Assembly: GCA_035221665.1 (NCBI GenBank)
Contig: CM069133.1
Location: 144,770,001-144,834,000 of the forward strand
Length of the DNA: 64,000 nt
Reading direction: 5' to 3'
DNA from: Okamejei kenojei
Lineage: Eukaryota
Part shown: piece after piece, positions 1 through 22,478 of the stretch
Position numbering within the stretch: position 1 is the stretch's first letter
Layout: the number at the start of each line of letters is the position of its first letter
Translations under genes and position numbers: made by a program
The notes under the pieces: generated by a model
The model's input: only the letters and a program-made list of their open reading frames with translations
What the model was told of the DNA's origin: nothing
Databases searched by the model: none

Positions 1-539
1 AATAAATTCACCTGTTTCTGTCTTCAAGGGACGTACATTTGTCTTAACTAAATCTTTCTTCCTCTTCACATACCTAAAGAAGCTTTCACTATCCTCCTTT
101 ATATTATTGGCTAGCTTACCTTCGTACCTCATCTTTTCCCCGTATTGCCTCTTTAGTTACCTTCTGTTGTTCTTTAAATGTTTCCCAATCCTCTGGCTTC
201 CCGTTCATCTTTGCTATGTATACGTCTTCTCTTTTAGTTTTATATATACTGTCCTTGGCTTCCCTTGTCAGCCACGGTCGCCTCTTACTCCCCTTAGAAT
301 CTTTCTTCCTCTTTGGAATGAAACGATCCTGCATCTTCTGGATTATTCCCAGAAATTCCTGCCATTGTTGTTCCACCATCAACCCTGCTAGGTTTCCTTA
401 CCAGTTAATTTTGGCCAGCTCCTCCCTCATGCCTCCATAGTCCCCTTTTTTCAACTGCAATACTGACACTTCTGATTTTACCTTCTCCTTCCTTAAAACC
501 TATCATATTATGGTCACTACCTCATAATGGTTCCTGTAC
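1..539 (-). mobile_element. CR1 LINE ORF2, inverted 5' segment (end of APE domain to linker)
   Basis: Minus strand encodes ..GSDHNMIGF..QQWQEFLGII..RPWLT..KEDSESFFRYVK..ETGEFI, typical of the CR1 ORF2 region before the RT. Confidence 0.85.
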
Positions 540-544
540 ATAAT

Positions 545-2276
545 GGTTCTGTCTTCACTAAGGAAGACATAAATAATTTGCCGGAAATAGCAGGGGATCA
601 CGGGTCAAATGAGATGGAGGAAATGAGTGAAATCCAGGTTAGCCGGAAAGTGGTGTTGGGTAAATTGAATGGATTAAAGGCCGATAAATCCCCAGGGCCA
701 GATAGGCTGCATCCCAGGGTACTTAAGGAAGTAGCCCCAGAAATAGCAGATGCCTTAGTGATAATTTTTCAAAACTCTTTAGATTCTGGAGTAGTTCCTG
801 AGGATTGGAGGGTAGCTAATGTAACCCCACTTTTTAAAAAGGGAGGGAGAGAGAAAACGGGGAATTACAGACCAGTTAGTCTAACATCGGTAGTGGGGAA
901 ACTGCTAGAGTCAATTATTAAAGATGGGATAGCAGCGCATTTGGAATGTGGTGAAATCATTGGACAAAGTCAGCATGGATTTACGAAGGGCAAATTATGT
1001 CTGACGCATCTTATTGAATTTTTTGAGGATGTAACTAGTAGAGTGGATAAGGGAGAAGCAGTGGATGTGTTGAATCTGGACTTTCAGAAGGCTTTCGACA
1101 AGGTCCCACACAAGAGATTGGTATACAAACTTAAAGCACACGGTATTGGTGGTTCAGTATTGATGTGGATAGAGAACTGGCTGGCAGACAGGAAGCAAAG
1201 AGTAGGAGTGAACGGGTCCTTTTCAGGATGGCAGACAATGACTAGTGGGGTGCCGCAAGGCTCAGTGCTGGGACCCCAGCTATTTACAATATACATTAAT
1301 GATTTGGACGAGGGAATTAAATGCAACATCTTGAAGTTTGCGGATGACACGAAGCTGGGGGGCAGTGTTAGCTGTGAGGAGGATGCTAGGAGGCTGCAGG
1401 ATGACTTGGATAGACTGGGTGAGTGGGCAAATGCATGGCAGATGCAGTATAATGTGGATAAATGTGAGGTTATCCACTTTGGTGGCAAAAACAGGAAGGT
1501 AGACTATTATTTGAATGGTGACCGATTAGGAAAAGGGGAGATGCAGCGAGACCTGGGTTGTTATGGTACACCAGTCATTGAAAGTAGGCATGCAGGTGCA
1601 GCAGGCTGTGAAGAAAGCGAATGGTATGTTGGCATTCAGTGCAAAAGGATTTGAGTACAAGAGCAGGGAGGTTCTACTGCAGTTGTACAGGGTCTTGGTG
1701 AGGCCACACCTGGAGTATTGCGTACAGCTTTGGTCTCCTAATCTGAGGAAAGACATTCTTGCCATAGAGGAAGTACAGAGAAGGTTCACCAGACTGATTC
1801 CTGGGATGGCACGACTTCCATATGAAGAAAGACTGGATTAGACTTGGCTTGTACTCGCTGGAATTTAGAAGATTGAGGGGTGATCTCATAGAGACTTACA
1901 AAATTCTTAAGGGGTTGGACAGGCTAGATGCAGGAAGATTGTTCCCGATGTTGGGGAAGTCCAGGACAAGGGGTCACAGTTTAAGGATAAGGGGGAAGTC
2001 TTTTAGGACCGAGATGAGAAAATCATTTTTCACACAGAGAGTGGTGAATCTGTGGAATTCTCTGCCACAGAAGGTAGTTGAGGCCAGTTTGTTGGCCATA
2101 TTTAAGAAGGAGTTGGATGTGGCCTTTGTGACTGAAGGGATCAGGGGGTATGGAGAGAAGGCAGGTACAGGATACTGAGTTGGATGATCAGCCATGATCA
2201 TATTGAATGGCGGTGCAGGCTCGAAGGGCCGAATGGCCTGCTCCTGCACCTAATTTCTATGTTTCTATGTTTCTAT
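545..2276 (+). mobile_element. CR1 LINE, RT domain to 3' end, frameshifted
   Basis: Motifs KSPGPD, NYRPVSLTS, DFQKAFD, GVPQGSVLGP, KFADD; frameshifts near 1560 and 1840; (TTCTATGT)n tail at ~2255-2276. Confidence 0.97.
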
Positions 2277-3120
2277 AAATGTTCCTTTATTCAATCCAAT
2301 GCTTTGTTACTAATAGATTCTAGCATTTCCCTACTACTGCTTTCAAGCTAAAGAGTCTGTGTTCCCTGCTTTTTCTATCCTTCCTTTCCCTACTTGTTAT
2401 CTCCACTTTTCTTAAATAGTCGGGTTGCAATCCGTGCACACAATTCCAGAATCTGTGCTGCTGCCTGTCTTGGCCAGGACTCTCTTGTAAAAGAGATGTT
2501 TAATCTCAATGAGACTTCTCCTGGTAAAATAAAGGTTAAATGAATAATTAAAAATGAAACAAAAGCAAACTGCGGGAGAAACTCAGTGGGCCAAGCAGCA
2601 CTGAGAAGGCAAATAGATACTCTGTGAAGGGAAAGGTTTTGGAGCCACATCCTTCATCTGGATTGAAAGGGAAGAGGGGGAGCAGAGGGACCTAGGAGTG
2701 CAGGTACATAGTTCCTTGGAAGTGGTGTCACAGGGAGATAGCAGGTCAACAGATGACAGGTGTCACAGGTCACATTGGCCTTCATCGGTATTGAGTATAG
2801 AGGCTGGAGTGGAGCGTGAATGCCAATATGACACAGATACAGGTAGCCCACATTGGCATTTATGAATTTCAGAGATAAATGGAGAAGATGTAATTTACTG
2901 TTAACTTGGGTCATCCTGAAGTACTTACTACCACATCCAGACATGAAATTGTTCATCATCTCTAAGTCTAAATCATGAAACTCCTTCCCCAGCAGCTCTG
3001 TGGCTGCAGCTTTCAACAGAAGCAATGCAGCTGTTCAAAAAGGCAATTCGCCACCACACTCTCGCACAATTAGTGATGGGCAAGAATGCTGACCTTGCCG
3101 GCAAAACCTAGATTTCCAAA

Positions 3121-4964
3121 GTGCAAATACACCCAATACAGCAAAGACACGGGTGATGAGGATCCACTCCAAAACCAGCAACCCTCTCCTTATGCTCAGC
3201 GCTGCGCTAGAGGAGGGAGAAACATTCACATACCTAGGCAGTGTTGTGGACATCACCAGAGGGGCAGAGGCAGACATAAAAAGTAAAATCAATAAGGCTG
3301 GGGTGGTGTTTAACATGCTCAGGAAGATCTGGAGCTCAAAACACATCTAAAAACACAAAGCTATCTTCCATCCGGCACTCAAATACACCTGGACCATTTC
3401 CGACATTTCCCTACCATTTCTTGACCTCACTATCTCCATCGCAGGTGACAGACTACTGACTGACATCTACTATTAACCCACTGACTCCCATGGCTATCTG
3501 GACTACACTTCCTCCCACCCTGCTTCCTGTAAGGACTCCATCCCCTACTCCCAATTCCTCCGTCTACGCCGCATCTGCTCCCAGGATGAGGTGTTCCACA
3601 CCAGGGCATCGGAGATGTCCTCATTCTTCAGGGAACAGGGGTTCCTCTCTTTGACTATAGATGAGGCTCTCACCAGGGTCTCTTCTATACCCTGTGACTC
3701 TACTCTCACTCCCCGTCCCCCCACTCATAACAAGGGCAGAGTTCCCCAAGTCCTCACCTTCCACCCTAACAGGCGTCATGTACAACAAATAATCCTCCTT
3801 CATTTTCGCCACCTCCAACGTGATCCCACCACTTGTCACATCTTCCCATCTCCTCCACTGTCTGCTTTCTACAGAGACCACTCCCTCGATAACTCCCTGG
3901 TCAATTCGTCCCTTCTCACCCGAACCAGCCCCTCTCCGGCACTTTTCCTTGCAACTGCAAGAAATGCTACACTTGTCGCTTTACCTCCCCCCTTGACTCC
4001 ATTCAAGGACCTAAGCAGTCTTTCCAGGTGAGGCAGAGGGTCACCTGCACCTCCTCCAACCTCATCTATTGCATCCGCTGCTCTAGGTGTCAGCTGCTCT
4101 ATATCGGTGAGACCAAGCGTAGGCTTGGTGATCGTTTCACCCAACACCTCCGCTCGGTTCGCAATAACCAACCTGATCTCCCGGTGGCCCAGCACTTCAA
4201 CTCCCCCTCCCATTCCGAATCCGACCTTTCTGTCCTGGGCCTCCTCCATGGCCAGAGTGAGGACCACCGTAAATTGGAGGAGCAGCACCTCATATTTCGC
4301 TTGGGCAGTTTACACCCCAGCGGTATGAATAGAGAGTTCTCCAATTTCAGGTAGTCCTTACTTTCTCCTTCCCTTCTTAGCTCTCCCTCAGCCCACTGGC
4401 TCCACCTCTTCCTTTCTTCTTCCTGCCTCCCCCTCGCAGCAGTCTGAGGAAGGGTTTCGGCCCGAAACGTTGCCTATTTCCTTCGCTCCATAGATGCTGC
4501 CTCACTCGCTGAGTTACTCCAGCACTTTTGTCTCCCTTCAATCAACACCAAATATGCATCTTTAACTCAAATGTGAAACAGGTGACGCTTTCTGGATCAG
4601 AGACACTGAATACAACAAAACACACTACAAACAGGCTGCAAACATTCATTAACACCTGCCTTAGGAGAATACGTAACATCTAGTGGTGAGACAAAGTAAG
4701 CAATGTGGACCTGTGGAAAAGAACAAGCCAGGAGCCCATTGACTTACAATTTCAAAGGAGAAAATGGAGTTGGATTCGACCCATCCTCAGGAAACCTGCC
4801 ACAAACGTCACCCAGCAAGCTCTAAAAAGGAACCCCCAAGGAACAGCTGGAGAAGAGGTGTCCAGACAGAAATGTCCGAGAGTGGGATCAACCGGGGGAG
4901 ATCTCGAAAGAGCTGCCGACAACCGAGTGAGGTGGAGGACATTTGTCAAGAAGTAGAAGGAGAC
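3121..4964 (+). mobile_element. RTE-clade LINE 3' fragment, split by a Penelope insertion
   Basis: FTYLGSVV..DIKSKINKA..LRKIWSS (3150-3350) resumes as NTK..FNSNVK..LQTFINTCLRRI..VSNVDLWKRT..RRKWSWI (4540-4960). Flanked by a 34-bp direct repeat. Confidence 0.85.
3361..4538 (+). mobile_element. Penelope-like element (Neptune type), 5'-truncated
   Basis: RT C-terminus (PFLDL, SIPYSQFLRLRRICS) and GIY-YIG endonuclease NLIYCIRCSRCQLLYIGET; hammerhead-like motif at ~4444-4471. Confidence 0.93.
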
Positions 4965-8861: not shown

Positions 8862-10508
8862 TACTTATTAAAACTCTGGATGTCTGGCTGTTTGTGCCTC
8901 TTGCTTTTCAAACTTGAACTTTTTCTGTGATTCACATCTCCTCGAAAACCCGACGCCGGAATGGTGACATTTGATTCATCATTCCCCGATTTTTTTAACT
9001 AAAATTGTTCACCAATCTCACATTTTTTTCAAATCCAACTGCTGAAGGCAGCTGATGATATCACATTGCCTTTGCTCGTGACCCAACTGGCTCATGGCTC
9101 ATTGGCTCAGCCCCCCCCCACCCCCCCCCCCCCCAATTCCCCGCTCTGGATTAAAGCAGCTGACAAGTTATATTAACCCCCCCCCCCCCCCCGACTCAGT
9201 CATTTTGTCCCGCACCCCCCCTCCGACTCACTGTGCTGTTGACTAGCACTCACCCAGCCATCCACAGCGCAGTGCCCCCCCCCGCCCACAGACCAACCGC
9301 TAAAAACGAAGTACGCTCCCGCTTCGGCTCGGGTTCTAGAACATTGCGACGGCGGACGTTATCGCCGTGCGGGCAGGGGGCGGCGATGGGAAGGTGGCCC
9401 TGGCGGCCATCACTCCCTCTGGGAGAGGCCGTCTATGGGCACCTCCATTGATCGCAGGGACATGGGGAATCGTGATGCCTTTTTTTCGCTGGTGATCCCG
9501 ATCCCGTTCTACGGACTAGGGTTGGGCCTGCCTCTACCCCCTCCCCCCTCTACCCCCCAGGGGCAGAGAAAAGGAGAGAGGGGAGGGGAGAGGGGGGGGG
9601 GGGGGGGGGTGGGGGATGGTGGGAGTGGGATGGAGAGGGTGGGGTGGAGTGGGGAATGAAAGGGAGGAGAGGGCACTTCCTCTCTGCCCCCCCCTCTTAA
9701 ACCCCTCCCTCTCTGACCTCACCCCTTCCTCTCTACCCCCATTCCTCTCTGTAACCTTCCTCTCTCTGCCTCTCCCTCCATCTCTGCCCCCTCCCTCTCT
9801 GCCCCCCTCCCCTCAATTCCCCCCTCCTCTCTCTCCCCCCCTTCCCCCCTCTCTCCCACCACCCTCTCCCCCTCTGCCCTCTCTCCACCTCACCCCCACT
9901 CCCCTCCACATTCCACCTCCATCCCCCTTTCCTCCCCCCTCTCCCCCTACTCTCCCCCAGCCCCCCCCTCCCCCTCCTTCCTCCCCACCCGTCCCCCCCT
10001 CTGCCCTGCTCCCACCCCTCTCCCCCCCTCCTCTCTCTCCCCTTCCCCTCTCTCCCCCCTCCCCCCTCTGCCCCACCTCCACCCCTCTCCCCTCTGCCCC
10101 TGCCTCCACCTCTCCCCCCTCCTCTCTCTCCCCTTCCCCCTCCCTCCCCTCCCCCCTCCCGCCCCCCTCCCCCCCTCCCCCCGCCTCCACCCCTCCCCCC
10201 CCCTCCTCTCTCTCCCTCTTCCCCTCTCTCCCCCTCCCTCTCTCTCTCCCCCCTATGCCCCACCTCCACCCCTCTCCCCCTCCCTCTGTCTCCCCCTTTC
10301 CCCTCCCATCCCCTCCCCATCCTGCCCCCACCCCTCTCCCCCCTCCTCCCCCCTTCCCCCTCCCCTCCCCCCCTCCCGCCTCCACCCCTCCCCCTCCTCT
10401 CTCTCCCCCCCTCCACCCCTCTGCCCTGCCCCCCACTCCTCTCCCCCCTCCCTCTCTCTCCCCCCTCCCCCGCCCCTCCCCCCCACCCCTTTCGTTGGGC
10501 CATGGGAA
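8862..10508 (+). mobile_element. Second related Helitron-like copy directly abutting the first; 3' end incomplete
   Basis: 5' region resembles that of 7568 (TACTT..AAAACT; TCTC.TCGAAAACC.GA.GCCG.AA.GG.GACATTT). About 800 bp of C/T low-complexity sequence; ends CGTTGGG without a CTAG terminus. Confidence 0.6.
9700..10490. repeat. Polypyrimidine (C/T) low-complexity tract
   Basis: Almost purely C/T on the + strand; source of the Pro-rich and Gly-rich spurious ORFs. Confidence 0.95.
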
Positions 10509-11023
10509 CAAGGTTCTGCTATATACTTTGTGTTTACTCGTTCTGACTTTAAATACCTCCATTAGATCCCTTTACTAACTTGCTCTATTCCAAGGATAAA
10601 TACTCCAATCCCTTCATTCTATCCATATAATTAAAGTACGGACCTTATCCCTGGAATTTGTATTCAATTTATGATCCAGTGATAGCTATGCAGTGAGGTA
10701 ATGCCAAATTCAATCAAGTAAGTTTAGCTTAATCTTATTTGGACTATTGAATCAGTTTATATCTGACAGTCTAATCTTGCTGTTAGTGTACTTTGTACTG
10801 ACACAATGCCAATACTTTTGACTGCTGAAAGAACACAGTGAGGCACAGTATTTTAAAATTATTTACTTTTTCTTTGGGATCTGGGCATCACTGCTAAGCG
10901 ATGGTGAGCTGCTGCCTTAAACTGCTGCAGTCCTCCTAGTGAAAGTAGACTGAAGGTTCTCCTGGGCAGGGTGTTCCATGGATTTATTGTCCTTCTTGGT
11001 ACGGTCTACAAAAATCCAGCCTA

Positions 11024-11339: not shown

Positions 11340-12129
11340 TTAGCCTCCTGATTGCCACACCAACCTGCCTCGGTTGATCAATAGGTGCTCCTCCAACTGC
11401 TGGAAGAAGCCTTTAAAGTATAATGGGCACTAAATCTACTCTGGAGGGTGGAAGGAATACTTCAATACCCATAGCAACGAGTAGCTCGGCAGCAGCGCCA
11501 CCGACTGAACGTGCCCTATCCCGAAGGATGCAGTTAATGGAGAGGGTTTGCAGCAGGTAATGGATGTACCTAACACAGGGGATAAACTCCTGACCTTATT
11601 CTCAACTAACATAAATACCTGTGATAGGTGGATCAGTCCAAGCTAGGCTTGTAACCTGACGGCACTGAGCACCATTAGCAATAGCAGGAATGTCCATCAT
11701 CATCATCATGTGGCATTTTGTGGCCGGCACATCCCTCACAATACTTTTACTTTCACGGCTGGGGGGCCTAGTCTAATGCAGAGTACTGAAAACCATTCTG
11801 GGAGCAGCATCAGGCATGTCCAAAAGTGAGATGGCGACCTGGCATTATAAGACTAGATGAATACTGAGCAGCCAAAACAACATGAAATAAACAGGGAAGT
11901 GATTCCACAATCAACAGGCCAGATCAATGGCCTGCAATCCCTTTAAATCTACCCGTTAATGATGGTGCACAATTAAAGAGGCACGATTAGGTAACATCTC
12001 ATTTGATTAGGTACAAGTGAGATATTACACGGGAAGGGGGAAAAGCGCAGTACATGCGCCAGCCCTTCAAATGTGTGTCCACTCTGATGGACTAACGCAG
12101 GCTGTGATGCGCAGATTTGGTCAAAGATG

Positions 12130-12500
12130 AATAAATTTATGTAAGTATGATACAGCACCTGAACCGTGAGCTTGTGCATCTCATATTTTGCTTGGGCAGC
12201 GTACACTCCAGCGGTTTGAATATTGACTTCTCTAACCTCAAGTAACCCTTGCTTTCTCTAATTAGATTCTAGCTTTGTATCATTCATTGTCACCTTCTCT
12301 GAGCTAACAGTGACCTATTCTACATCTTCCTTGATCTCCATCCATTTTGATGTTTTGTTTTCACATCTTACCCTTCCTTATCTGTGCCACCCTCTCCCCG
12401 ACACTGATTGAAGAAGAGTCTCAAACTGAAACATCACCCATGCCTTCTGTCCAGTGATGCTGCCTGTCCCGCTGGTTTACTCCAGCATTTTGTGTCTATC
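12130..12500 (+). mobile_element. Degraded Penelope 3' fragment
   Basis: CATCTCATATTTTGCTTGGGCAGC..., decayed hammerhead motif and GATGCTGCCTG..CCAGCATTTTGTG tail. Confidence 0.75.
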
Positions 12501-12956
12501 TTTAAGACTTGATTTGTTTTCTTTCCCTTGCAATTTTCTAAACCAACAATTTCCTCTTAATGACTACGTATGTCCCTGAAAATCTTTCAATTTACTTTAA
12601 CAATCCTTTATATTTTAAAGTCATTTGGTAATGTTATTTCATTTCAATTGTATCTATTTATCTTCTTTTTCCTTTGACATGACATCACCATGGGACTGGT
12701 GAGATGAGATACCATATAATTTTAATGGAATATGAACATTGGTGTTCGCTTTAATTCAAATAAATGCCTAGAGCCTTTGGCTGTAATGATAACTGAAACT
12801 GTCATGAGATAATTTCTCCTCAGGGTTCCCATTGATATTTTGCCTCTCCCCAAGGGACAGATACTTTAGTTTGGGAACTAATGTTCTTGATTCATCTCTT
12901 GTTATTTTGCTTGTCATAATCCTCCTTTTTCCTTGCACACACACTCCTTTTATTAG

Positions 12957-13535
12957 GTGAGACCAAGCGGAGGCTTGGCGATCACTTCGCCGAACACCTC
13001 CGCTCGGTCCGCAATAACCAACCCGACCTCCCGGTGGCTCAGCACTTCAACTCCCCCTCCCATTCCACATCCGACCTCTCGGTCCTGGGCCTCCTCCACG
13101 GCCAGAGTGAGCAACACCGCAAGCTGGAGGAACAGCACCTCATATTCCGCTTGGGGAGTCTGCATCCTTTGGGCTTGAACATTGAATTTTCTCAATTCTG
13201 TTAACCCTTGCTGTCTCCTCCCCTTCCCACCTCTCCCTCAGCCCTCGGGCCCTGGCATTCCCTCTATCTCTATCTCCCCCATCCCCCACCCCAGTCGCAC
13301 CAGCTTCTCATTTTCACACCACAAACAGCTTACAATGGCTTGTTCCCTTTATCATCGATACTTTTTTGCATATCTTTCATTCATTATTCCTTATCTCTCC
13401 ACATCACCGTCTATATCTCTCGTTTCCCTGATCCCTGACCAGTCTGAAGAAGGGTCTCGACCCGAAACGTCGCCTATCTCCTTCGCTCCTTAGATGCTGC
13501 TGCACCCGCTGAGCTTCTCCAGCTTTTTGTGTACC
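12957..13535 (+). mobile_element. Penelope 3' fragment with 15-bp TSD
   Basis: GIY-YIG C-terminal half; TSD CACTCCTTTTATTAG at 12942-12956 and 13536-13550. Confidence 0.92.
13441..13474 (+). ncRNA. Minimal type I hammerhead ribozyme motif of a Penelope pLTR
   Basis: CUGAAGA-A-GGGUC-UC-GACCC-GAAAC-GUC with palindromic ACGU stem III, as known for PLE minimal hammerheads; stem I is very short. Confidence 0.7.
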
Positions 13536-14347
13536 CACTCCTTTTATTAGTTAATCTGCCTTTTGCTCCAGCATAAAGCTTCTCTTTTATTGCTTCCTCC
13601 CCCTTTGGCATTTCTATACTGAAAGCCTTTTCATTTCCAGGTGTTTTCAATTGTTGAATAGATAAACAGATAGGAAATATTGAGAGGGATATGGGCCAAA
13701 TATGGGCAATTGGGATGAGCGCAGAATGCCAACTTAGTTGGTATGGACAAGGGGAGCTGAAGGGCCTGTTTCTATGACTGATGAATAGCCATCAACCTGA
13801 AACATCAACTATGTTTTTCTCTCTTCACAGATGACTAAACAAGTTGTATGCTGGTTACATTCTCTACATCCTTTGAACGTGACAAAGCAGAGATTTTGGC
13901 AAATGATTAGGATGTGGAAAGAGCAGACACAAGGAACTGTAGATGCTGATTTACAAAAGACACAAAGTGCTGGAGGAAATCTCATGGATAGATCATATTT
14001 TGGGTCGTTATTCTTCTTCAGATTCAATGTTATTTCTCACTCAGAGCAAAGGTATCACTGGTACTAAAAGTGAAGGAGCAGGAAATATTAAGAAGATTTA
14101 CAATTACAGGTTTAATGCTAAATAAATCAGAAAAGGCTAGACTGTTGACAATGTGAAAATGGAATTACACGTGAATTGGGGAATATTTTTCTCCCAAGAG
14201 CCAGGTAGAAGTAAATTGGATTAGAAAAATAAGTAAATGTGACTAACACAAGGAAGTAGTTAAAGATGGCATCAACTCAAATTGAAACTATGGGAGTAGA
14301 GAAGCCCTCACCCTCTCCCCTCCTGGCCAGAGGAAGGATTGGATCAT

Positions 14348-14804
14348 GATTCCTGGGATGGCACGACTTTCATATGAAGAAGACTGGATAGACTCGGCTT
14401 GTACTCGCTAGATTTTAGAAGATTGAGGGGGGATCTTATAGAAACGTACAAAATTCTTAAGGGGTTGGACAGGCTAGATGCAGGAAGATAGTTCCCGATG
14501 TTGGGGAAGTCCAGGACAAGGGGTCACAGTTTAAGGATAAGGGGGAAGTCTTTTAGGACCGAGATGAGAAAATCGTTTTTCACACAGAGAGTGGTGAATC
14601 TGTGGAATTCTCTGCCACAGAAGGTAGTTGAGGCCAGTTCATTGGCTGTCTTTAAGAGGGAGTTAGATGTGGCCCTTGTGGCTAAAGGGATCAGGGGGTA
14701 TGGATAGAAGGCAGGTACAGGATACTGAGTTGGATGATCAGCCATGATCATATTGAATGGCGGTGCAGGCTCGAAAGGCCAAATGGCCTGCTCCTGTTTC
14801 TATG
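14348..14804 (+). mobile_element. CR1 3' fragment
   Basis: Near-identical to 1795-2250. Confidence 0.93.
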
Positions 14805-15943
14805 TCGGTCCTCACCTTACACCCCACCAGCTTCTGCAGATAATGGATCATCCTTTACAATTCCTGCCACCTACAATGAGATTCCACCTCAGACATATAT
14901 TCCCTCTCCCTTTTCTTCACGGCATTTCTTATTCACTAATGCCTCTGCTTCAGGTGACACCTTCCCATTCATCCATAGGTGTTCAATATTATTTTACTTA
15001 CACTGGATAAAAATGCAGTTGAGGCAGCAGCTACTATTCAGTCTGAGAGGGCAACCCAGAGCTTCCAGTTGCCTGGCACATTCATTCTCCATACCACTCT
15101 CCTCTACACTATTCAAGAGAAGCCCAATGGAAGCTGGATACCATGATTATGGAATTATAGTATCCAGATTTGGATTGCTAATTTTAGTTTTAAAATCAGT
15201 TATTGGACAAATTAAAATTGGACGCCTTTCCAATAGTCATCAGAATGGAAAGAGTTAAAGGTTATTAATATAAAACTCACAGAAAGAGTACATCTTTACA
15301 GAAGGTGCAAGAAAACTGTTGCGTGTTTATTATGAATATGTTGGGCTGGGGAAACATGCAACACAATTTAAAAAAACAAATCTTCTATTCTGAGAGATCT
15401 ATTTGCAAAAAAATATGCAGTTCTGGCTGCATATTGTAAGAAAACAGGTTTTTTTTAAAAACTTTCCCATGGGAAAGTTACGCTCGACTAAGAATAAAGA
15501 GCACACTACATTTACATTCCTGTCACCAGTTTCTGCAGACAAGAGGTTTTTGTTTGAACGAGCAGTTGAACAGCTCACAAATGTTATATTTTTCAAGACT
15601 ACTTTAGTAATTTTGAAATAGATATGCAATAGAGAGTTGAGTGTGTTAAAATCATGCATTGGCCTAAAAACGATTTCCCACACAGAGAAATATTTTAGTT
15701 ACAATTTAGGACAATGAGGTAAGCCTGACATTGTAAAGCAAAATCAATTTCTTACTGATCATCCAACACTGCTTGTCATCTTGGTTGGCTTTGGGATGTT
15801 AAAAGGCAAAAGGCATATATTATCTCAATAAGAGCAATAATGCTGGCATTATTACTGATTATCTGAATACAAATCTGTATTCTCGTTGACCATACAAGCA
15901 TGGCATCCCAACTGATTCAATGTAACAGAAATGGGGAACTGAC

Positions 15944-17460
15944 CCTTCCTCGGACAATGTGGCCACTGACCGTTTATGAAGCTCCAATAACAACTGTGGA
16001 GAAGATGGAGCGAACCATAACTTCATACGCGAAGAAATGGCTCGGTGTCCCACGATGTCTAACTAACATCGGCCTCTATGGCAAAGGGGTCCTGGAACTA
16101 CCTCTCACTAGTCTAACAGAGGAATACAAGTGTTCCAAAGTAAGACTCCAGATGACACTGAGGGACTCTAGAGACAAGACCATCAGTGCTGTTGCGCCGC
16201 CCCTAGTAACGGGCCGGAAGTGGACACCATCTGATGCAGTACAACAAGCTTCATCAGCCCTGAGGCACAAAGACGTCGTGGGGCAAGTGCAGCAGGGAAG
16301 AGGAGGCTTTGGCCTTACGACAAGTAAACCAACTTGGCGAAAGGCCACAACATCAGAGCGGAGGACATTGGTGGTTGAGGAGGTGCGGCGACAGGAGGAG
16401 GCCGCAAGAAGTGCAAAGGCGGTCTCGCTTGCCAAACAGGGGCAATGGATGCAGTGGGAAGGTGTGGAGCGGAGGAAGATCAGCTGGAAAGAACTATGGG
16501 AAATGGAATCAAGCAAGATCAGCTTCATCATCAGAGCGACATACGACGTCCTTCCATCACCAAAGAACCTCAATCAGTGGTACGGCGAGGATCCAATCTG
16601 TGCCCTCTGCCCAACTCCAGCGACCCTCAAACACATCATGGTACGCTGCAAGACCAGCCTCACGCAAAGGAGATACACGTGGAGGCATAATCAGGTATTA
16701 AAAAGCCTGGCAACAGCCCTTGAGAACAGGCTGTGTGCGACCAACTCCTTGCCTCCGAGAGCAAGCAACCCCTCCCACTTAAGGGCGACAACCTTTGTCC
16801 GAGAAGGACAGAAAACACCGAAACATCCTTCCACTAGATCAGAAGAAGGAAACCTATGCAGGGCCCGTGACTGGAGGATGCTGGCGGACATCGGCCGACA
16901 ACTAATCTTTCCACCTGAAATTGCTTCAACCAACCTCAGGCCAGATTTGGTGTTCTGGTCCCTTTCACAGAAGACTGCTTACATCATAGAGCTCACAGTT
17001 CCATGGGAGAACTCTGTTGTGGAGGCCTATGAGCGTAAGAAGCTGCGCTACACAGAGCTTGCAGCAGAGGCAACGCAGTGTGGCTGGAACATCAACGTTT
17101 ATCCAGTTGAAGTGGGATGCAGAGGATTTGTTGCGTCATCTACCATCAGACTGCTGAAGGAGCTTGGAATCCACGGTCAGGCTCTGCAGAAGACCATAAG
17201 ATCACTCTCAGACGCGGCTGAAAGAAGCAGCTGTTGGATTTGACTTAGCGGAAAGACCCATGCTGGGCCCCAAATACATCATGGTGAATCTTTGAGGCAG
17301 TTTGACACGGGACACACGCTGAGGGCTGATCATCCTGCAGCGGGCCGCCCTTGTGGAGGGTGTATAGTGATAAAAGGCCGAAACACCCAGTGATGCAAGG
17401 GTACACTACTGATGATGTGTCCTGTGCCCAGCTGTCCTGAAGGTTACCCAGGCCAAGATA
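15944..17460 (+). mobile_element. 5'-truncated RLE-type non-LTR retrotransposon, HERO-like
   Basis: ORF with a CCHC knuckle (CALC..LKHIMVRC), RHNQVL, and RPDL..IIELTVPWE..KKLRY (PD-(D/E)xK restriction-like endonuclease). The stop at 17241-17243 looks like TGG>TGA in WIWL; structured 3' UTR follows. Confidence 0.9.
17343..17415 (+). ncRNA. Candidate permuted hammerhead ribozyme in the RLE element 3' UTR
   Basis: Core CUGAUGA 17409-15, GAAA 17380-83, cleavage triplet GUA 17362-64; stems I, II and III all pair perfectly (see findings). Confidence 0.65.
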
Positions 17461-18059
17461 TACGTATACGTACCCCCCCCCCCCCTGATGTTGAGCGTCG
17501 ACCACTCTCAGCAATCAATGAATGTCGTGAAATGCTCCCCACCTACTGGCACAAGGGACTTCTTAACATCTAGTCCTGTGTATTTGATTCTTTTTGTTTG
17601 ACATGCTATGGTGGCGGGGAAGATCCAGAAATATGTATTGTCTACAAACGTCACATTGATGATACAATATTTACTTGCAATGTGTAGAAGAGGGACACTG
17701 GAAAAGCACGTTTCTACCAAACACGTCGTTGGGCAAACAATATTGTCTCCTGGCCATATATTTCTCAGCACAACCACCAAGTTCTGGCTGTATAGCTGTG
17801 ACTTAGAAGGAAAAACAAGAAAATAGGAATCAACATTTTGACATGGTGGACCGAAGGGCCTGATTCTGTGCTGTACGGTTTAAAAACTGGACCAGGCAAT
17901 TTCTAGCAGAAATGTCATTTATGGTTCAACCCTTGTTGCCCTTCAAGAAGTGATTGTTGGCTTTCTTTGACAAGTACTTTATTCCACTTGGTGAAGGTAT
18001 TTCTACAATGCTGATAGGTATACATTGTTAGCACTAGCCTGGAGGGTTTCCAAGTTCAC

Positions 18060-18390
18060 AAGTTATAGGAGTAGAATTAGGTCATTCGGCCCATCGAGCC
18101 GAGTCTGCCATTCAATTATGGCTGATTTCTGCCTCCTAATCCCATTTTCCTGCCTTCTCCCCATAACCCTTGACACACATGTTCTAATCAAGAGTTTGCC
18201 TATTTCTGCCTTAAAAATATCCTCTGACATCGCCTGCACAGCCCTCTGTGACAATGAGTTATATAGATTAACTACCCTCTAACTAAATAAGTTCCTCGTC
18301 ACCTTCTTTCTAAAAGAGCCCCCTTTAATTCTGAGGCTATGACCTCTGTTCCTAGACTCTCACACCAGTGGAAGCATCCTTTCCATATCT
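18060..18390 (-). mobile_element. CR1 3' fragment (older subfamily)
   Basis: Reverse complement of a CR1 3' end (GCCATTCAAT.ATGGCTGAT..CCTGCCTTCTCCCCATA). Confidence 0.85.
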
Positions 18391-18876
18391 AACCAGGTTA
18401 CGATCTGAAGCATCACTTATCCATGTTCTCCAACGATGTTGCCTGACCTGCACTTTGTGTCTTTTGAAAAAAACCCCATCATCTGCAGTTCCTTGTTTCT
18501 ACATTAGTAGTATTGTAACCCAGTGATAATGAAAGAAATGTAATATACCAAATCAGGCTGGTATGTGACATGAAAGGTGAATAAACAATGACGGTGATCT
18601 CATGCATCTACCACCCATTCCCTTCCAGGTAGTCAGGTTACGGGTTTGAGAGGTGATGCTATAAGAATCCAAGCAACTCCATGCAGTATGTCAGTGCTGG
18701 GTGGGGACAGTGAATTCAACACATGAAATGCAGGCCAAATCTGTCAGCATTGGCTTAACGGCTTAAACAGGAAGATCTTTAAAGGCCTTAAAGTGCATCA
18801 TCCCAAATGTTGTAATTCTGCAAATTGTACCATATCATCTTTCCTTAGCAATGTTCTGCACTTGCTAGTTGTGGGT

Positions 18877-19680
18877 GTGGCGGGGGCTAACGGCAGCGGC
18901 TCGACTACAGTCGTCTGTTTATTTTTATTTTTGTCTTGTTAAATGTATGTCTTGAGCCTAGTTGTTATTCTTTTTTTAGCTGTGTATATGTGGGGGATAG
19001 AGGGGGGGCTGTGGGGAAACCGTTAGTCTCTTCCCTGTACGGGCCCCAACTTTTTCCCTGTCGGGTCTCCAGTGTCATTGGGCCTAACAGTGTGCAGCCG
19101 GCGGCGGCTTCCGGCCGGGACCAGCCTCCCGACTCTGGTCGCGGAGCCTGCGGACCTGACATTGCGGAGCTGGCCGTCTTCGGAGCGGGGAGAGCTGTGG
19201 TGGCGCTCGGCTGCGACCCGACTTTGGAGCTTCGGAGGCTCCGGCTGCAGGCCCGGTGGACAGGAACATCGGGTGCTCCAGGTCCCTGGTGGGAGACGGC
19301 TTTTCGGAGCTCCCGTAACGGCAACTTCTCCCGCTGGAATCACGGGATTTAAAGGACACGGAGCGTGGCCTAACATCGCCTGGCGCCTAACACGGGACTT
19401 ACCATCGTCCGCCGGGGGCTCTAACATCAGAGCCCCAGTTCGCCTAGGCGCTGCAGTTGGACTGCTGGACCGCGGGTGAAGAACAAAGGGAAGAGATAAG
19501 ACTTTGCCTTCCATCACAGTGAGGAGGTGTTGGAGACTCACTGTGATGGATGTTTATGTAAACTATGTTAAGTGTGGGTCTTAGGTTTTTTGTAATGTTA
19601 AAAAACTGTAGAAAATGCAATTTTGTTCAAACCAAGTTGTTTGAATGACAATAAAAGGCATTCTATTCTATTCTATTCTA
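18877..19680 (+). mobile_element. GC-rich non-autonomous retroposon (SINE-like) with (ATTCT)n tail
   Basis: CpG-rich non-coding body, 14-bp hairpin 19510-19550, TGAATGACAATAAA followed by (ATTCT)n. The 3' domain is shared with 54345-55070. Confidence 0.7.
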
Positions 19681-20413
19681 CTTAAGCTAGATGAAAGATT
19701 AAAGTTCCGTCCTGCTTTATGTGTTTGTGTGGAAGAAAAGTCTTACATGTTAGTCTGCTGATTCAAAGCAAAACAAGTGTACAGGTTAATTAGCTTTATT
19801 ATTCTCATAAACCACTAAAGATAAAATGATAAAATTAGAAAGACAAACAGATAAAAACGGGTGATTGAGAAGATAAAGACTTTCCTTTATGATGTTTGGC
19901 TCGTACATGACGAACAATTCCTGGATTTTTGCTCCCTAGGTTCTGCAGCCTTCCACAATTAGAGCAGGATAGAGCAGGTGGGGGGGGGGGAGTGTAAGCT
20001 AATGTGTTTATGAAAGTTTTTGGTGTTCTCATGATGCATGACTTTGAGCTTCTCCACACATCCCCAATGCTCCTTCCCCACTCTGGGAGGTTATTTCGTC
20101 TTCAGATTGTATGTTTAAAGAAAACTGCTTCCCACGTACATGGCAGCATTCTTATAATGAATTCTTCATATTGTCAGTTTTTTAATCTGCTGCATTGATG
20201 CATTTTCTTCTGCGAGAATGTACTAAGGAGTGATCTAGGCTTACCAAATCCTACATGCTGTATAATGCATTTGATGTGGAAATTACAAAACTTATTGAAA
20301 CTATAGTTTTACCTCAAAAAAAGGAAAACTGGGTGATCTCACAATTATAGAATGTATTTCACATCTTCCTCACCTTTCAAACATTTCACAACAAATTATG
20401 TGAAAATTAGTGG

Positions 20414-21022
20414 TAGACAGAAAAGCTGGAGAAACTCAGCGGGTGAGGCAGCATCTATGGAGCGAAGGAATAGGCGACGTTTCGCGTCGAGACCCTTCTT
20501 CAGACTGATATCGGGCGGGAAGAAGAAAGGAAGAGGCGGAGACGGTGGGCTGTGGGAGAGCTGGGAAGGGGAGGGGAAGGAGGGAGAAAGCAAGAACAAC
20601 CTGAAATTGGAGAAGCCAATGTTCATACCGCTGGGGTGTAAACTGCCCAAGCCAAATATGAGGTGCTGCTCCTCCAATTTACGGTGGGACTCACTCTGAC
20701 CATGGAGGAGGCCCAGGACAGAAAGGTCGGATACGGAATGGGAGGGGGAGTGCTGTGCCACCGGGAGATCAGGTTGGTTAATGCGATCTGAGCGGAGGAG
20801 TTGGGCGAAGCAATCGGCAAGCCTACGCTTGGTCTCACCGATGTAGAGCAGCTGACACCTGGAAAAGCGGATGCAGTATATGAGGTTGGAGGAGGTGCAG
20901 GTGAACCTCTGCCTCACCTGGAAAGACTGCTTGGGCCCTTGGATGGAATCGAGAGGCGAGGTAAAGCGACAAGTGTCGCATTTCCTGCGGTTGCAAGGGA
21001 AAGTACCGGGGGGAGGGGGTGG
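20414..21022 (-). mobile_element. Penelope 3' fragment
   Basis: PGTFPCNRRKC..NLIYCIRFSRCQLLYIGET; hammerhead motif at ~20476-20508. Confidence 0.92.
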
Positions 21023-22478
21023 GAAGCGACTATTGGTCACTATTTTGCCATGTGCTAAATAAACAAATTAAACCAATGACAATAATTCAATTGTATTTCT
21101 GCTGAATCAAACACATTCACGTTAGACAAGCACACTAATCAACAAACAGAGTCAGCATATATAGTTTGAGGAACGTTTTCAATATTTATCCAAATTGGTG
21201 TAACCATAGTAGTATGTTTGTGCACCCATGTTTGTGATATTTATGAGAGATTTGAACCATTTATATATTTGAAGCATATTAAAAAATCTGGACATCTCCC
21301 AGTAACCAAGGGAAGCAAATGAGGAATTTGAGTCTCTGGGAACAGTCATTTCAATGGCGCCATGAATGGACAAACTGGAGATGAGCACTAATGGAATGGA
21401 AGGTAGGGGTTATGGAAATGGGTAGCATGACCTCTGAGGCACCGGAAGGTAAAATCATTAAAATGAGGTAAGTGCACGTTGTGGTGGAGATGGGGAACAC
21501 ACACATTATTCCAGGTGCATCTCAGATGCCTCTTGCGAGGCTTTGTGGAAATAGATGGAGAAAAGTGGGAGTCAAAAGCCATTGCCATTTCACTGAACTC
21601 CCAAAGGTCTTACTTACTTCACCAGTTTTATTGCAGAATATAACATAATGGAAGTGTGTCAAATTTTGACATTGGTACAGAACAATAACAATTCTGGCAT
21701 CATTTTCAAATATTTGCACCACTTATGTGCTCAAACTATACGTTAAAAATGGAGCTATGGCACCATATGCCTTCACTACACATGTTTTGCCATTTGTAGC
21801 AACTTCACATCAATTGGATAGTTTTCCACATTTTTTACATTAAATTTCTTTAATACACAATAATAAGAATGATGATTAAATAGATCCATGACAACAAATC
21901 AACTTCAGTAAATAATTAAGTGAAAACAGTCTTACCAAGATGGTAGTTGGCCAATTTTCTTCATTAAAAATAAATCAAATACTCGTTAGGGATTTTCAAA
22001 ACAAAAAGTTGACATCCAAAGTTTTCTCAAGACCTTGAGAATCCCTGGACGTTTTGTAAGTATACCAGGAACAAGAGGCTAGTTAGGGTATGAAATGAAT
22101 AAACAATTTGAGGAACCTGGCGAAATGAGCAATGTCGTAATTGAATATTTCTTATCTGTATTCACCATGGAGAAAGATATGACTAATGTGTTCAGTCAGG
22201 AGTGCGTGGATATTCGGAACAGGTCAATATTAGGTCAGCATTTAAAAGATGTTTGGGCAGGTACATGGATAGGAAAGGTTTAGAATGATTTGGGCCAAAT
22301 ACAGGCAAATGGGACTAGCTTAGATGGGGGATTCTGGTCAACATGGATAAATTCGGCTGAAGGGCCTATTTCCATGCTGTATGACTCTATAAGAAGGAAG
22401 TGTTCGATGTCATGAAATGAACAATGGTTGATAAATCTTCAAGACCAGATGAGATCTATCCCATTTTGCTATGGCTTA

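Follow-up and report, generated by a model that had tools for sequence, protein, structure and literature searches.

A retrotransposon of Okamejei kenojei carries, downstream of its open reading frame (ORF), a hammerhead-ribozyme motif in which all core bases are present but the strands follow one another in an order that no circular permutation of the hammerhead gives. The element was found in a 64,000-nucleotide stretch of contig CM069133.1 (assembly GCA_035221665.1, positions 144,770,001 to 144,834,000 of the forward strand; hereafter the window, whose numbering is used below). Comparison of copies in the genome identifies it as a 5'-truncated copy, at 15944..17590 on the plus strand, of a HERO-like retrotransposon without long terminal repeats (non-LTR), about 4 kb in length and with a restriction-like endonuclease (RLE), of which it comprises unit positions 2335-4023. 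Judged from conservation and covariation among homologous elements, the motif is a real, selected hammerhead variant, and it very probably cleaves itself, with the cut predicted after position 17364. Copies of the element run past this cut, and those with an intact 5' end nearly always stand head-to-tail behind another copy. We think it probable that such copies are made on a circular RNA template produced by the ribozyme.

Results

A hammerhead ring opened between A9 and G10.1

Eckert et al. (2023) define the hammerhead by blocks S, G and C and validate types SGC and CSG (passages in PMC10085705). All parts of the motif described here lie on the plus strand. The outer helix Pa has its 5' strand at 17283..17316 (core 17306-17316, with an imperfect extension from 17283) and its 3' strand at 17416..17449 (core 17416-17426), the latter starting directly after A9. 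Hairpin Pb (17317..17342), with the palindromic apex UGAUCA at 17327-17332, ends directly before G10.1 (17343), the first base of the stem II 5' strand (17343..17346). There follow the 5' strand of a helix linking stems I and II (17347..17355), the stem III 5' strand with the GUA triplet (17358..17364), the stem I 5' strand (17365..17369), which would carry the 5'-OH end once cleaved, block G with the stem II 3' strand, GAAA and the stem III 3' strand (17376..17388), the 3' strand of the linking helix (17394..17402), and the stem I 3' strand with the CUGAUGA core (17404..17415; C3 = 17409, A9 = 17415). The hammerhead had been proposed in an earlier note made from the letters of the window, and the helix and core-base coordinates given there all agree with the sequence. 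By computed energies, the six helices all form as duplexes: the 11 bp of Pa (17306-16/17416-26) give -17.5 kcal/mol, or -37.7 kcal/mol when extended to 17283/17449, and the values for stem II, the linking helix, stem III and stem I are -5.9, -12.4, -8.5 and -3.1 kcal/mol. The two products of a cut at 17364 would be bridged by Pa, the linking helix and stems II and III, with a duplex energy of -63.6 kcal/mol. A relaxed descriptor, which asks for GUH, GAAAC and YUGANGA in S-G-C order and for stems I-III of at least 4 bp each, has a single match on the two strands of the window and none in 150 Markov-resampled windows; a search of window 12000-20000 against Rfam gave no meaningful match (best E 0.74).

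Read 5' to 3', the motif runs from the stem II 5' strand through one strand of the linking helix to S and G, and then through the other strand of that helix and stem I to CUGAnGA. Like types SGC, CSG and GCS, the motif keeps the ring order S-G-C and all core bases, a short linker from stem I to stem II, and a helix joining the other sides of both stems. In contrast to these types, it splits block C, with CUGAnGA last and the stem II 5' strand first, and inserts two helices, Pa and Pb, between A9 and G10.1. Eckert et al. work on the assumption that insertions into block C do not exceed 1-2 nt, and their RNAs come from metatranscriptomes, metagenomes and one bacterium, none from a eukaryotic genome (passages in PMC10085705). 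The hammerheads of Penelope elements tolerate a single extra base between positions 9 and 10.1 (passages in PMC4209133), and the passages of PMC3088659 on hammerhead insertions mention no inserted helix at the A9-G10.1 link. Compared with type SGC, the motif has S, G and CUGAnGA in the right order together with the linking helix, but block C is not intact. None of 30 homologs can form a conventional stem II immediately following CUGAnGA, and A9 is not joined to stem II within 0-2 nt, offsets of 0, 1 and 2 nt giving a 3-bp stem II in 0, 4 and 1 of the 30. Type CSG was also rejected, because it would need CUGAnGA upstream of the cleavage site, where only the stem II 5' strand lies. Read in this way, the motif is the ring of types SGC, CSG and GCS opened inside block C, between A9 and G10.1, and it works like type SGC without being type SGC.

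Conservation among homologous elements

A profile search of metagenome contigs, from which the host range of the ribozyme is drawn, returned 80 loci with homologous elements. The motif was found by descriptor in 34 of the 54 loci examined and, by a covariance model built from 30 sequences, in 49 of the 80. Among the 46 loci that reach the end of the ORF with at least 180 nt downstream, 45 carry it, 28 of these being in the training set of the model. The sole miss, L088 (1611-2029), has a long downstream region and a protein 38% identical to the query. Protein identity in motif-bearing loci (n=28) has a minimum of 33% and a median of 47%.

Pairing is well maintained over this range. In a sequence-only alignment of 30 rows, 82.5% of cells are paired, as against 57.0% after shuffling and at most 44.4% after sliding, and double changes in pairs number 252 versus 91.5. 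Scored by alignment columns, pairing reaches 94% in stem I, 92% in stem III, 83-90% in the linking helix and 81% in the outer helix; stem II scores 59%, which is low because its 4- and 5-bp forms misalign. When anchored, a G-started stem II of at least 4 bp forms in 28 of 30 native sequences, while swapped pairs give 349 of 870; the corresponding counts for stem I are 26 of 30 and 76 of 870. Compensatory changes occur in all helices (pair counts). This covariation bears out the earlier note on the structure, on the hammerhead identity of the motif, on its non-circular order with the gap between A9 and G10.1 bridged, and on base pairs that would clamp the cleavage products together. The selection of sequences tells against these figures, as 25 of the 30 alignment rows were picked by a descriptor that demands pairing; among 20 held-out rows, several of them near-duplicates of training sequences, 16 have a complete stem I and 14 a stem II of at least 4 bp.

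Core bases were counted on 52 rows, two of the 54 matches (one truncated, one weak) having been dropped. C3, U4, G5, A6, G8, A9, G12, A13, A14, A15.1 and U16.1 are each kept in 47-52 of the 52. Position 17 avoids G (C 24, U 14, A 10, G 2, deleted 2), and position 11.1 is mostly C (C 44, U 4, A 3, G 1), so that the NUH triplet and the G10.1-C11.1 pair of hammerheads are found across the homologs. In one subfamily (L099, L114, L121, L115), A or G replaces C at 11.1 and breaks the pair with G10.1; these may be decayed copies or a core variant. The apex of Pb is a 6-mer palindrome in 19 of the 30 aligned homologs, in three mutually compensating versions, which suggests a kissing contact.

The replacement of the A9-G10.1 link by a two-helix junction is unlike the tested hammerheads in the passages of the literature consulted, and would suit a hammerhead fold that has no useful cleavage rate and serves as a protein-binding or packaging structure. 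We consider this very improbable, because all core bases and a position 17 that excludes G are kept across proteins 33-47% identical and because genomic lesions cluster at the predicted scissile bond, as described below.

Further variants were observed. The O. kenojei genome contains a second element family (L220-L224, L234), about 65% identical, with the same motif, compensatory changes in stem I and the linking helix, and four copies with small deletions at or across the cut. A weak model match (E 0.047) at L222:8982-9091 on the minus strand resembles a third, more distant version of the motif. The Pa 5' strand extends into the final codons in 21 of the 45 homolog loci, 3 of which owe this to frameshifts, and translation could gate ribozyme folding because of this overlap.

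The element, its copy ends and its head-to-tail arrays

The 2.8-Gb genome holds 1465 first-look candidate copies of the element, and exact anchors flanking the cut are matched by 887 genomic copies. In the window copy, 15944..17287 (plus strand) encodes the C-terminal portion of a single ORF, comprising the end of the reverse transcriptase (RT), a CCHC knuckle and a PD-(D/E)xK endonuclease. The early stop at 17243 results from a 1-nt deletion private to this copy, whereas the frame ends at the equivalent of 17287 in the 23 plus-strand sibling copies compared; the predicted cut therefore lies 77 nt past the ORF, rather than the roughly 120 nt of the earlier note. Homologous proteins have a single ORF with an N-terminal zinc finger, RT, CCHC and PD-(D/E)xK endonuclease (motifs by eye, four homologs), and their RT belongs to Pfam PF00078. 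By protein similarity, the named ones come from teleosts, lamprey, amphioxus and clam, their 3' untranslated regions (UTRs) lying outside the motif survey. A Pfam search of the window ORF matched no family, and a search of viral contigs found no relative. Insertion follows no fixed target sequence, as 60 of 60 non-tandem 3' flanks differ, and no convincing target-site duplication was seen at 12 loci and in the window, two long shared words sitting within repeats. The domain layout, which we take to be that of the HERO clade, and the unspecific insertion agree with the HERO-like label of the earlier note, and on these two features the assignment to the clade is tentative.

Units were numbered 1-4023, with unit 4023 corresponding approximately to window 17590. 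All of 30 copies selected through ORF sequence lying upstream of the ribozyme run beyond the predicted cut; 28 end at unit 4019-4023 (about window 17590), some 226 nt downstream of the cut, and two at unit 3862-3864. This fixed element end follows a terminal hairpin at 17549-17581 (together 17549..17590, plus strand; copy ends and duplex energies) and is the putative start of reverse transcription. Upstream of it lies a C tract (17473..17485, plus strand) whose length varies among copies. Several other families (L059, L061, L066, L068, L099, L123) likewise have a small hairpin and then about 10 nt marking the 3' end, and in distant families the terminal hairpin stands merely about 40 nt past CUGAnGA. 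The earlier note had suggested, in keeping with the position of the ribozyme after the ORF, that cleavage creates the RNA 3' end at which target-primed reverse transcription (TPRT) starts. With 0 of 30 copies ending at the cut, and with homolog families also ending downstream of the whole ribozyme, past the terminal hairpin, this role is scarcely credible.

A second set of 30 copies was picked by the first 146 nt of the unit, that is, by an intact 5' end. In 28 of these, the copy is preceded head-to-tail by a 3' fragment that ends at the unit 3' end; the fragments are 33 to >1500 nt long, and 22 of the 28 reach 5' of the cut. Of the remaining two copies, one has an upstream fragment of 8 nt and one has none. 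A search by anchor words, which junctions without these words escape, gave 205 head-to-tail junctions; among the first 100 listed, 84 are exact and none is off by more than 1 nt net (by eye), and runs of 3-4 junctions occur. Array partners differ at 6 of 67 family-polymorphic sites, compared with 41% between unrelated copies (some genomic copies being counted twice), and self-targeting into existing copies is ruled out as the source of arrays because partners share their haplotype. The element thus shows more-than-unit, head-to-tail copies of one template, a feature of circular-RNA retroelements in the model for Penelope-like elements and retrozymes. Among homologs, the ORF start of a next unit follows the motif in 7 of the 18 loci with at least 500 nt downstream. 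T, also the base found there in a next unit, directly follows the copy in 43 of 60 flanks (background 0.32).

The unit start (L031:5185-5315) is a conserved run of short hairpins with GAAAG-like loops and UGAC spacers, also seen downstream of the motif in L056, L059, L066, L068 and L077. Lying just 3' of the RT start on a circle, it could be a protein-binding, translation or promoter signal.

Head-to-tail copies might also arise from a linear RNA spanning unit 1-4023 if the RT, on reaching the 5' end of this RNA, jumped to its 3' end; the ribozyme nick would then stay clamped and serve only to regulate stability or translation. Template jumping has been reported for R2 proteins (passages in PMC11331408). 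Repeated copying of the same molecule in this way would also account for the single haplotype of each array and for the deletions shared by array partners (see below). However, the 4023/1 junction is precise, and lesions gather instead at the ribozyme cut. A template jump would be expected to add untemplated bases or trim the ends, unlike the precise junction, and we regard this explanation as unlikely.

Lesions at the predicted cleavage site

A pattern detecting loss of register in 17350-17393 gave 91 hits, which were classified by script, three rows with duplicate flanks being removed. The 5' ends of truncated copies number 4 in 17350-64, 17 in 17365-79 and 12 in 17380-94, so that truncations are in excess in the 15 nt 3' of the cut compared with the 15 nt 5' of it (17 versus 4, p 0.004); about 15 of 60 rows are truncated in 17311-44 (by eye). 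On the 3' side, four of 11 independent deletions stop at 17364-65 (p 0.001), and one-base insertions are enriched at 17361-17365 (23 of the events in 88 rows) relative to that 6-mer context in the 3' tail (both by eye). T is duplicated at U16.1 in 10 of 88 insertion rows, versus 1 of 35 where GTGTAT recurs in the 3' tail (by eye, the denominator of this control being uncounted). Homolog copies L115 and L121 are also without the cut site. Near the cut, fold-back (inverted) copies of ribozyme sequence were observed at points of truncation or insertion in G000:C4:108557336, G000:C11:27246009 and L319.

In arrays L216 and L217, both partners share private deletions, of 27 and 58 nt, that end exactly at the cut. 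Segmental duplication of these two arrays is ruled out, because each upstream copy lacks its 5' part and directly adjoins the next unit. Private cut-ended deletions present in both partners point to one rejoined junction that was copied twice.

The truncations also bear on a different role of the ribozyme, in which the upstream member of a redundant pair makes the 5' end of a read-through transcript, as ribozymes like that of hepatitis delta virus (HDV) do for R2, and yields a linear, terminally redundant template. The downstream ribozyme would then be mostly kept uncut, for example by ribosomes unwinding Pa, and long arrays would come from uncut multimeric transcripts. Consistent with this, 5' truncations are in excess just 3' of the cut, the upstream fragment of L232 begins 2 nt after it, and the Pa 5' strand overlaps the reading frame in the 21 homologs mentioned above. 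Such processing is nevertheless improbable, because most upstream fragments (the 22 of 28) extend 5' of the cut, because both partners of two arrays carry private cut-ended deletions, and because arrays could only shrink in the absence of regeneration.

Other features of the window

At 20396-21067 on the minus strand lies an open frame with a GIY-YIG-like motif of the kind found in Penelope-like elements, and a similar fragment lies near 13000-13200. A long C/T-rich low-complexity tract at 9520-10578 yields spurious open frames.

Discussion

From the genomic patterns observed, we infer a scheme of cleavage, ligation, strand exchange and circle formation, which we hold to be probable: the ribozyme would cut, its ends would rejoin or stay clamped to give a unit-length RNA circle, and the RT would copy round this circle from an internal start. 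A more-than-unit genomic array would be transcribed through two ribozymes, both of which would cut. The upstream and downstream halves would be held together by Pa, the linking helix and stems II and III, which amount to about 30 bp and to more if the extension of Pa is counted; with four such helices, the two ends of the monomer could themselves rebuild the ribozyme, which would allow ligation by the reverse reaction or by a host ligase, or the RT might cross the nick. For strand exchange, two ribozymes may dock through the palindromic loop of Pb. The protein would bind the terminal hairpin, nick an unspecific target and prime at 17590 on the circle. Synthesis halting at random would leave truncated copies, and synthesis passing the start again would give arrays, which could seed the next round. 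A precise join at the ends of the DNA copies, together with an error-prone join at the cut, suggests that the template is continuous across 17590/unit 1 and religated or nicked at 17364/17365, and a circular template copied more than once would explain why full-length copies sit head-to-tail.

Several observations do not favour such a circle. Truncations are denser within the 39 nt of 17401-17439, to which about 58 of 100 listed rows belong (by eye), and because of this still higher density the drop at the cut could reflect a gradient of RNA structure. Partners differ at the cut in L222, L228 and L231, which indicates that some junction lesions arose outside RNA. A further peak of insertions lies 3 nt upstream of the cut (7 at 17361), the assembly is rich in 1-nt errors, and the insertion control has the limit given above. 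At the second flanking base, agreement with the next unit is no better than chance (14 of 60, p 0.19). Finally, products clamped by about 30 bp would have to exchange strands in order to circularize.

For Penelope-like elements and retrozymes, a circular RNA template has been proposed (passages in PMC4209133 and PMC7761336). According to the same passages, these elements resemble the one described here in that hammerheads occur in retroelements with head-to-tail, more-than-unit copies, and in that palindromic loops serve dimer formation; their hammerheads are of type I or minimal, in GIY-YIG elements or non-autonomous repeats. The HERO-like element, in contrast, is autonomous and RLE-type, has a pseudoknotted, non-circular hammerhead, and places the end of its DNA 226 nt away from the cut. 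R2 and other long interspersed nuclear elements (LINEs) with HDV-like ribozymes offer a further likeness, a self-cleaving RNA in an RLE-type non-LTR retrotransposon, with cleavage here predicted; there the ribozyme is at the 5' end and sets the 5' boundary of the element (passages in PMC7761336; see also PMC3774820). By comparison, the HERO-like motif is of another ribozyme class and follows the ORF, and the predicted cut coincides with neither terminus of the inserted DNA. The HERO clade itself is described as having a single ORF with RT and restriction-like endonuclease and no fixed target (passages in PMC4640811), as is the case here. The literature searched on this clade describes no ribozyme, tandem habit or circular intermediate, and the wider literature searched, with Repbase and key subscription papers outside its coverage, contains no report of the motif or of circular intermediates in HERO-type elements, passages of PMC13580325, PMC7650587 and PMC13725137 included; given this coverage, tandem HERO copies or the motif may have been mentioned before.

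These results extend hammerhead architecture past the six block orders thought possible, and they put a non-circular permutation into animal genomes, where it is under selection and present in many copies. We are evenly divided on a broader proposal: that a whole autonomous R2-type clade moves by way of a ribozyme-made RNA circle, with a seventh four-block permutation that clamps the products and favours ligation, and with rolling-circle TPRT by the RLE/RT protein from an internal site. If this is true, the element would need neither a defined RNA 3' end nor a 5' end of its own. The element also offers a direct test of the long-standing proposal made for Penelope elements and retrozymes, that ribozyme-made circles template head-to-tail insertions, the test case here being an autonomous, young element that leaves scars at the cut. 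For RNA-only gene insertion and circular RNA production, both a hammerhead that clamps its products and an R2-type protein that begins within a circular template would be of interest.
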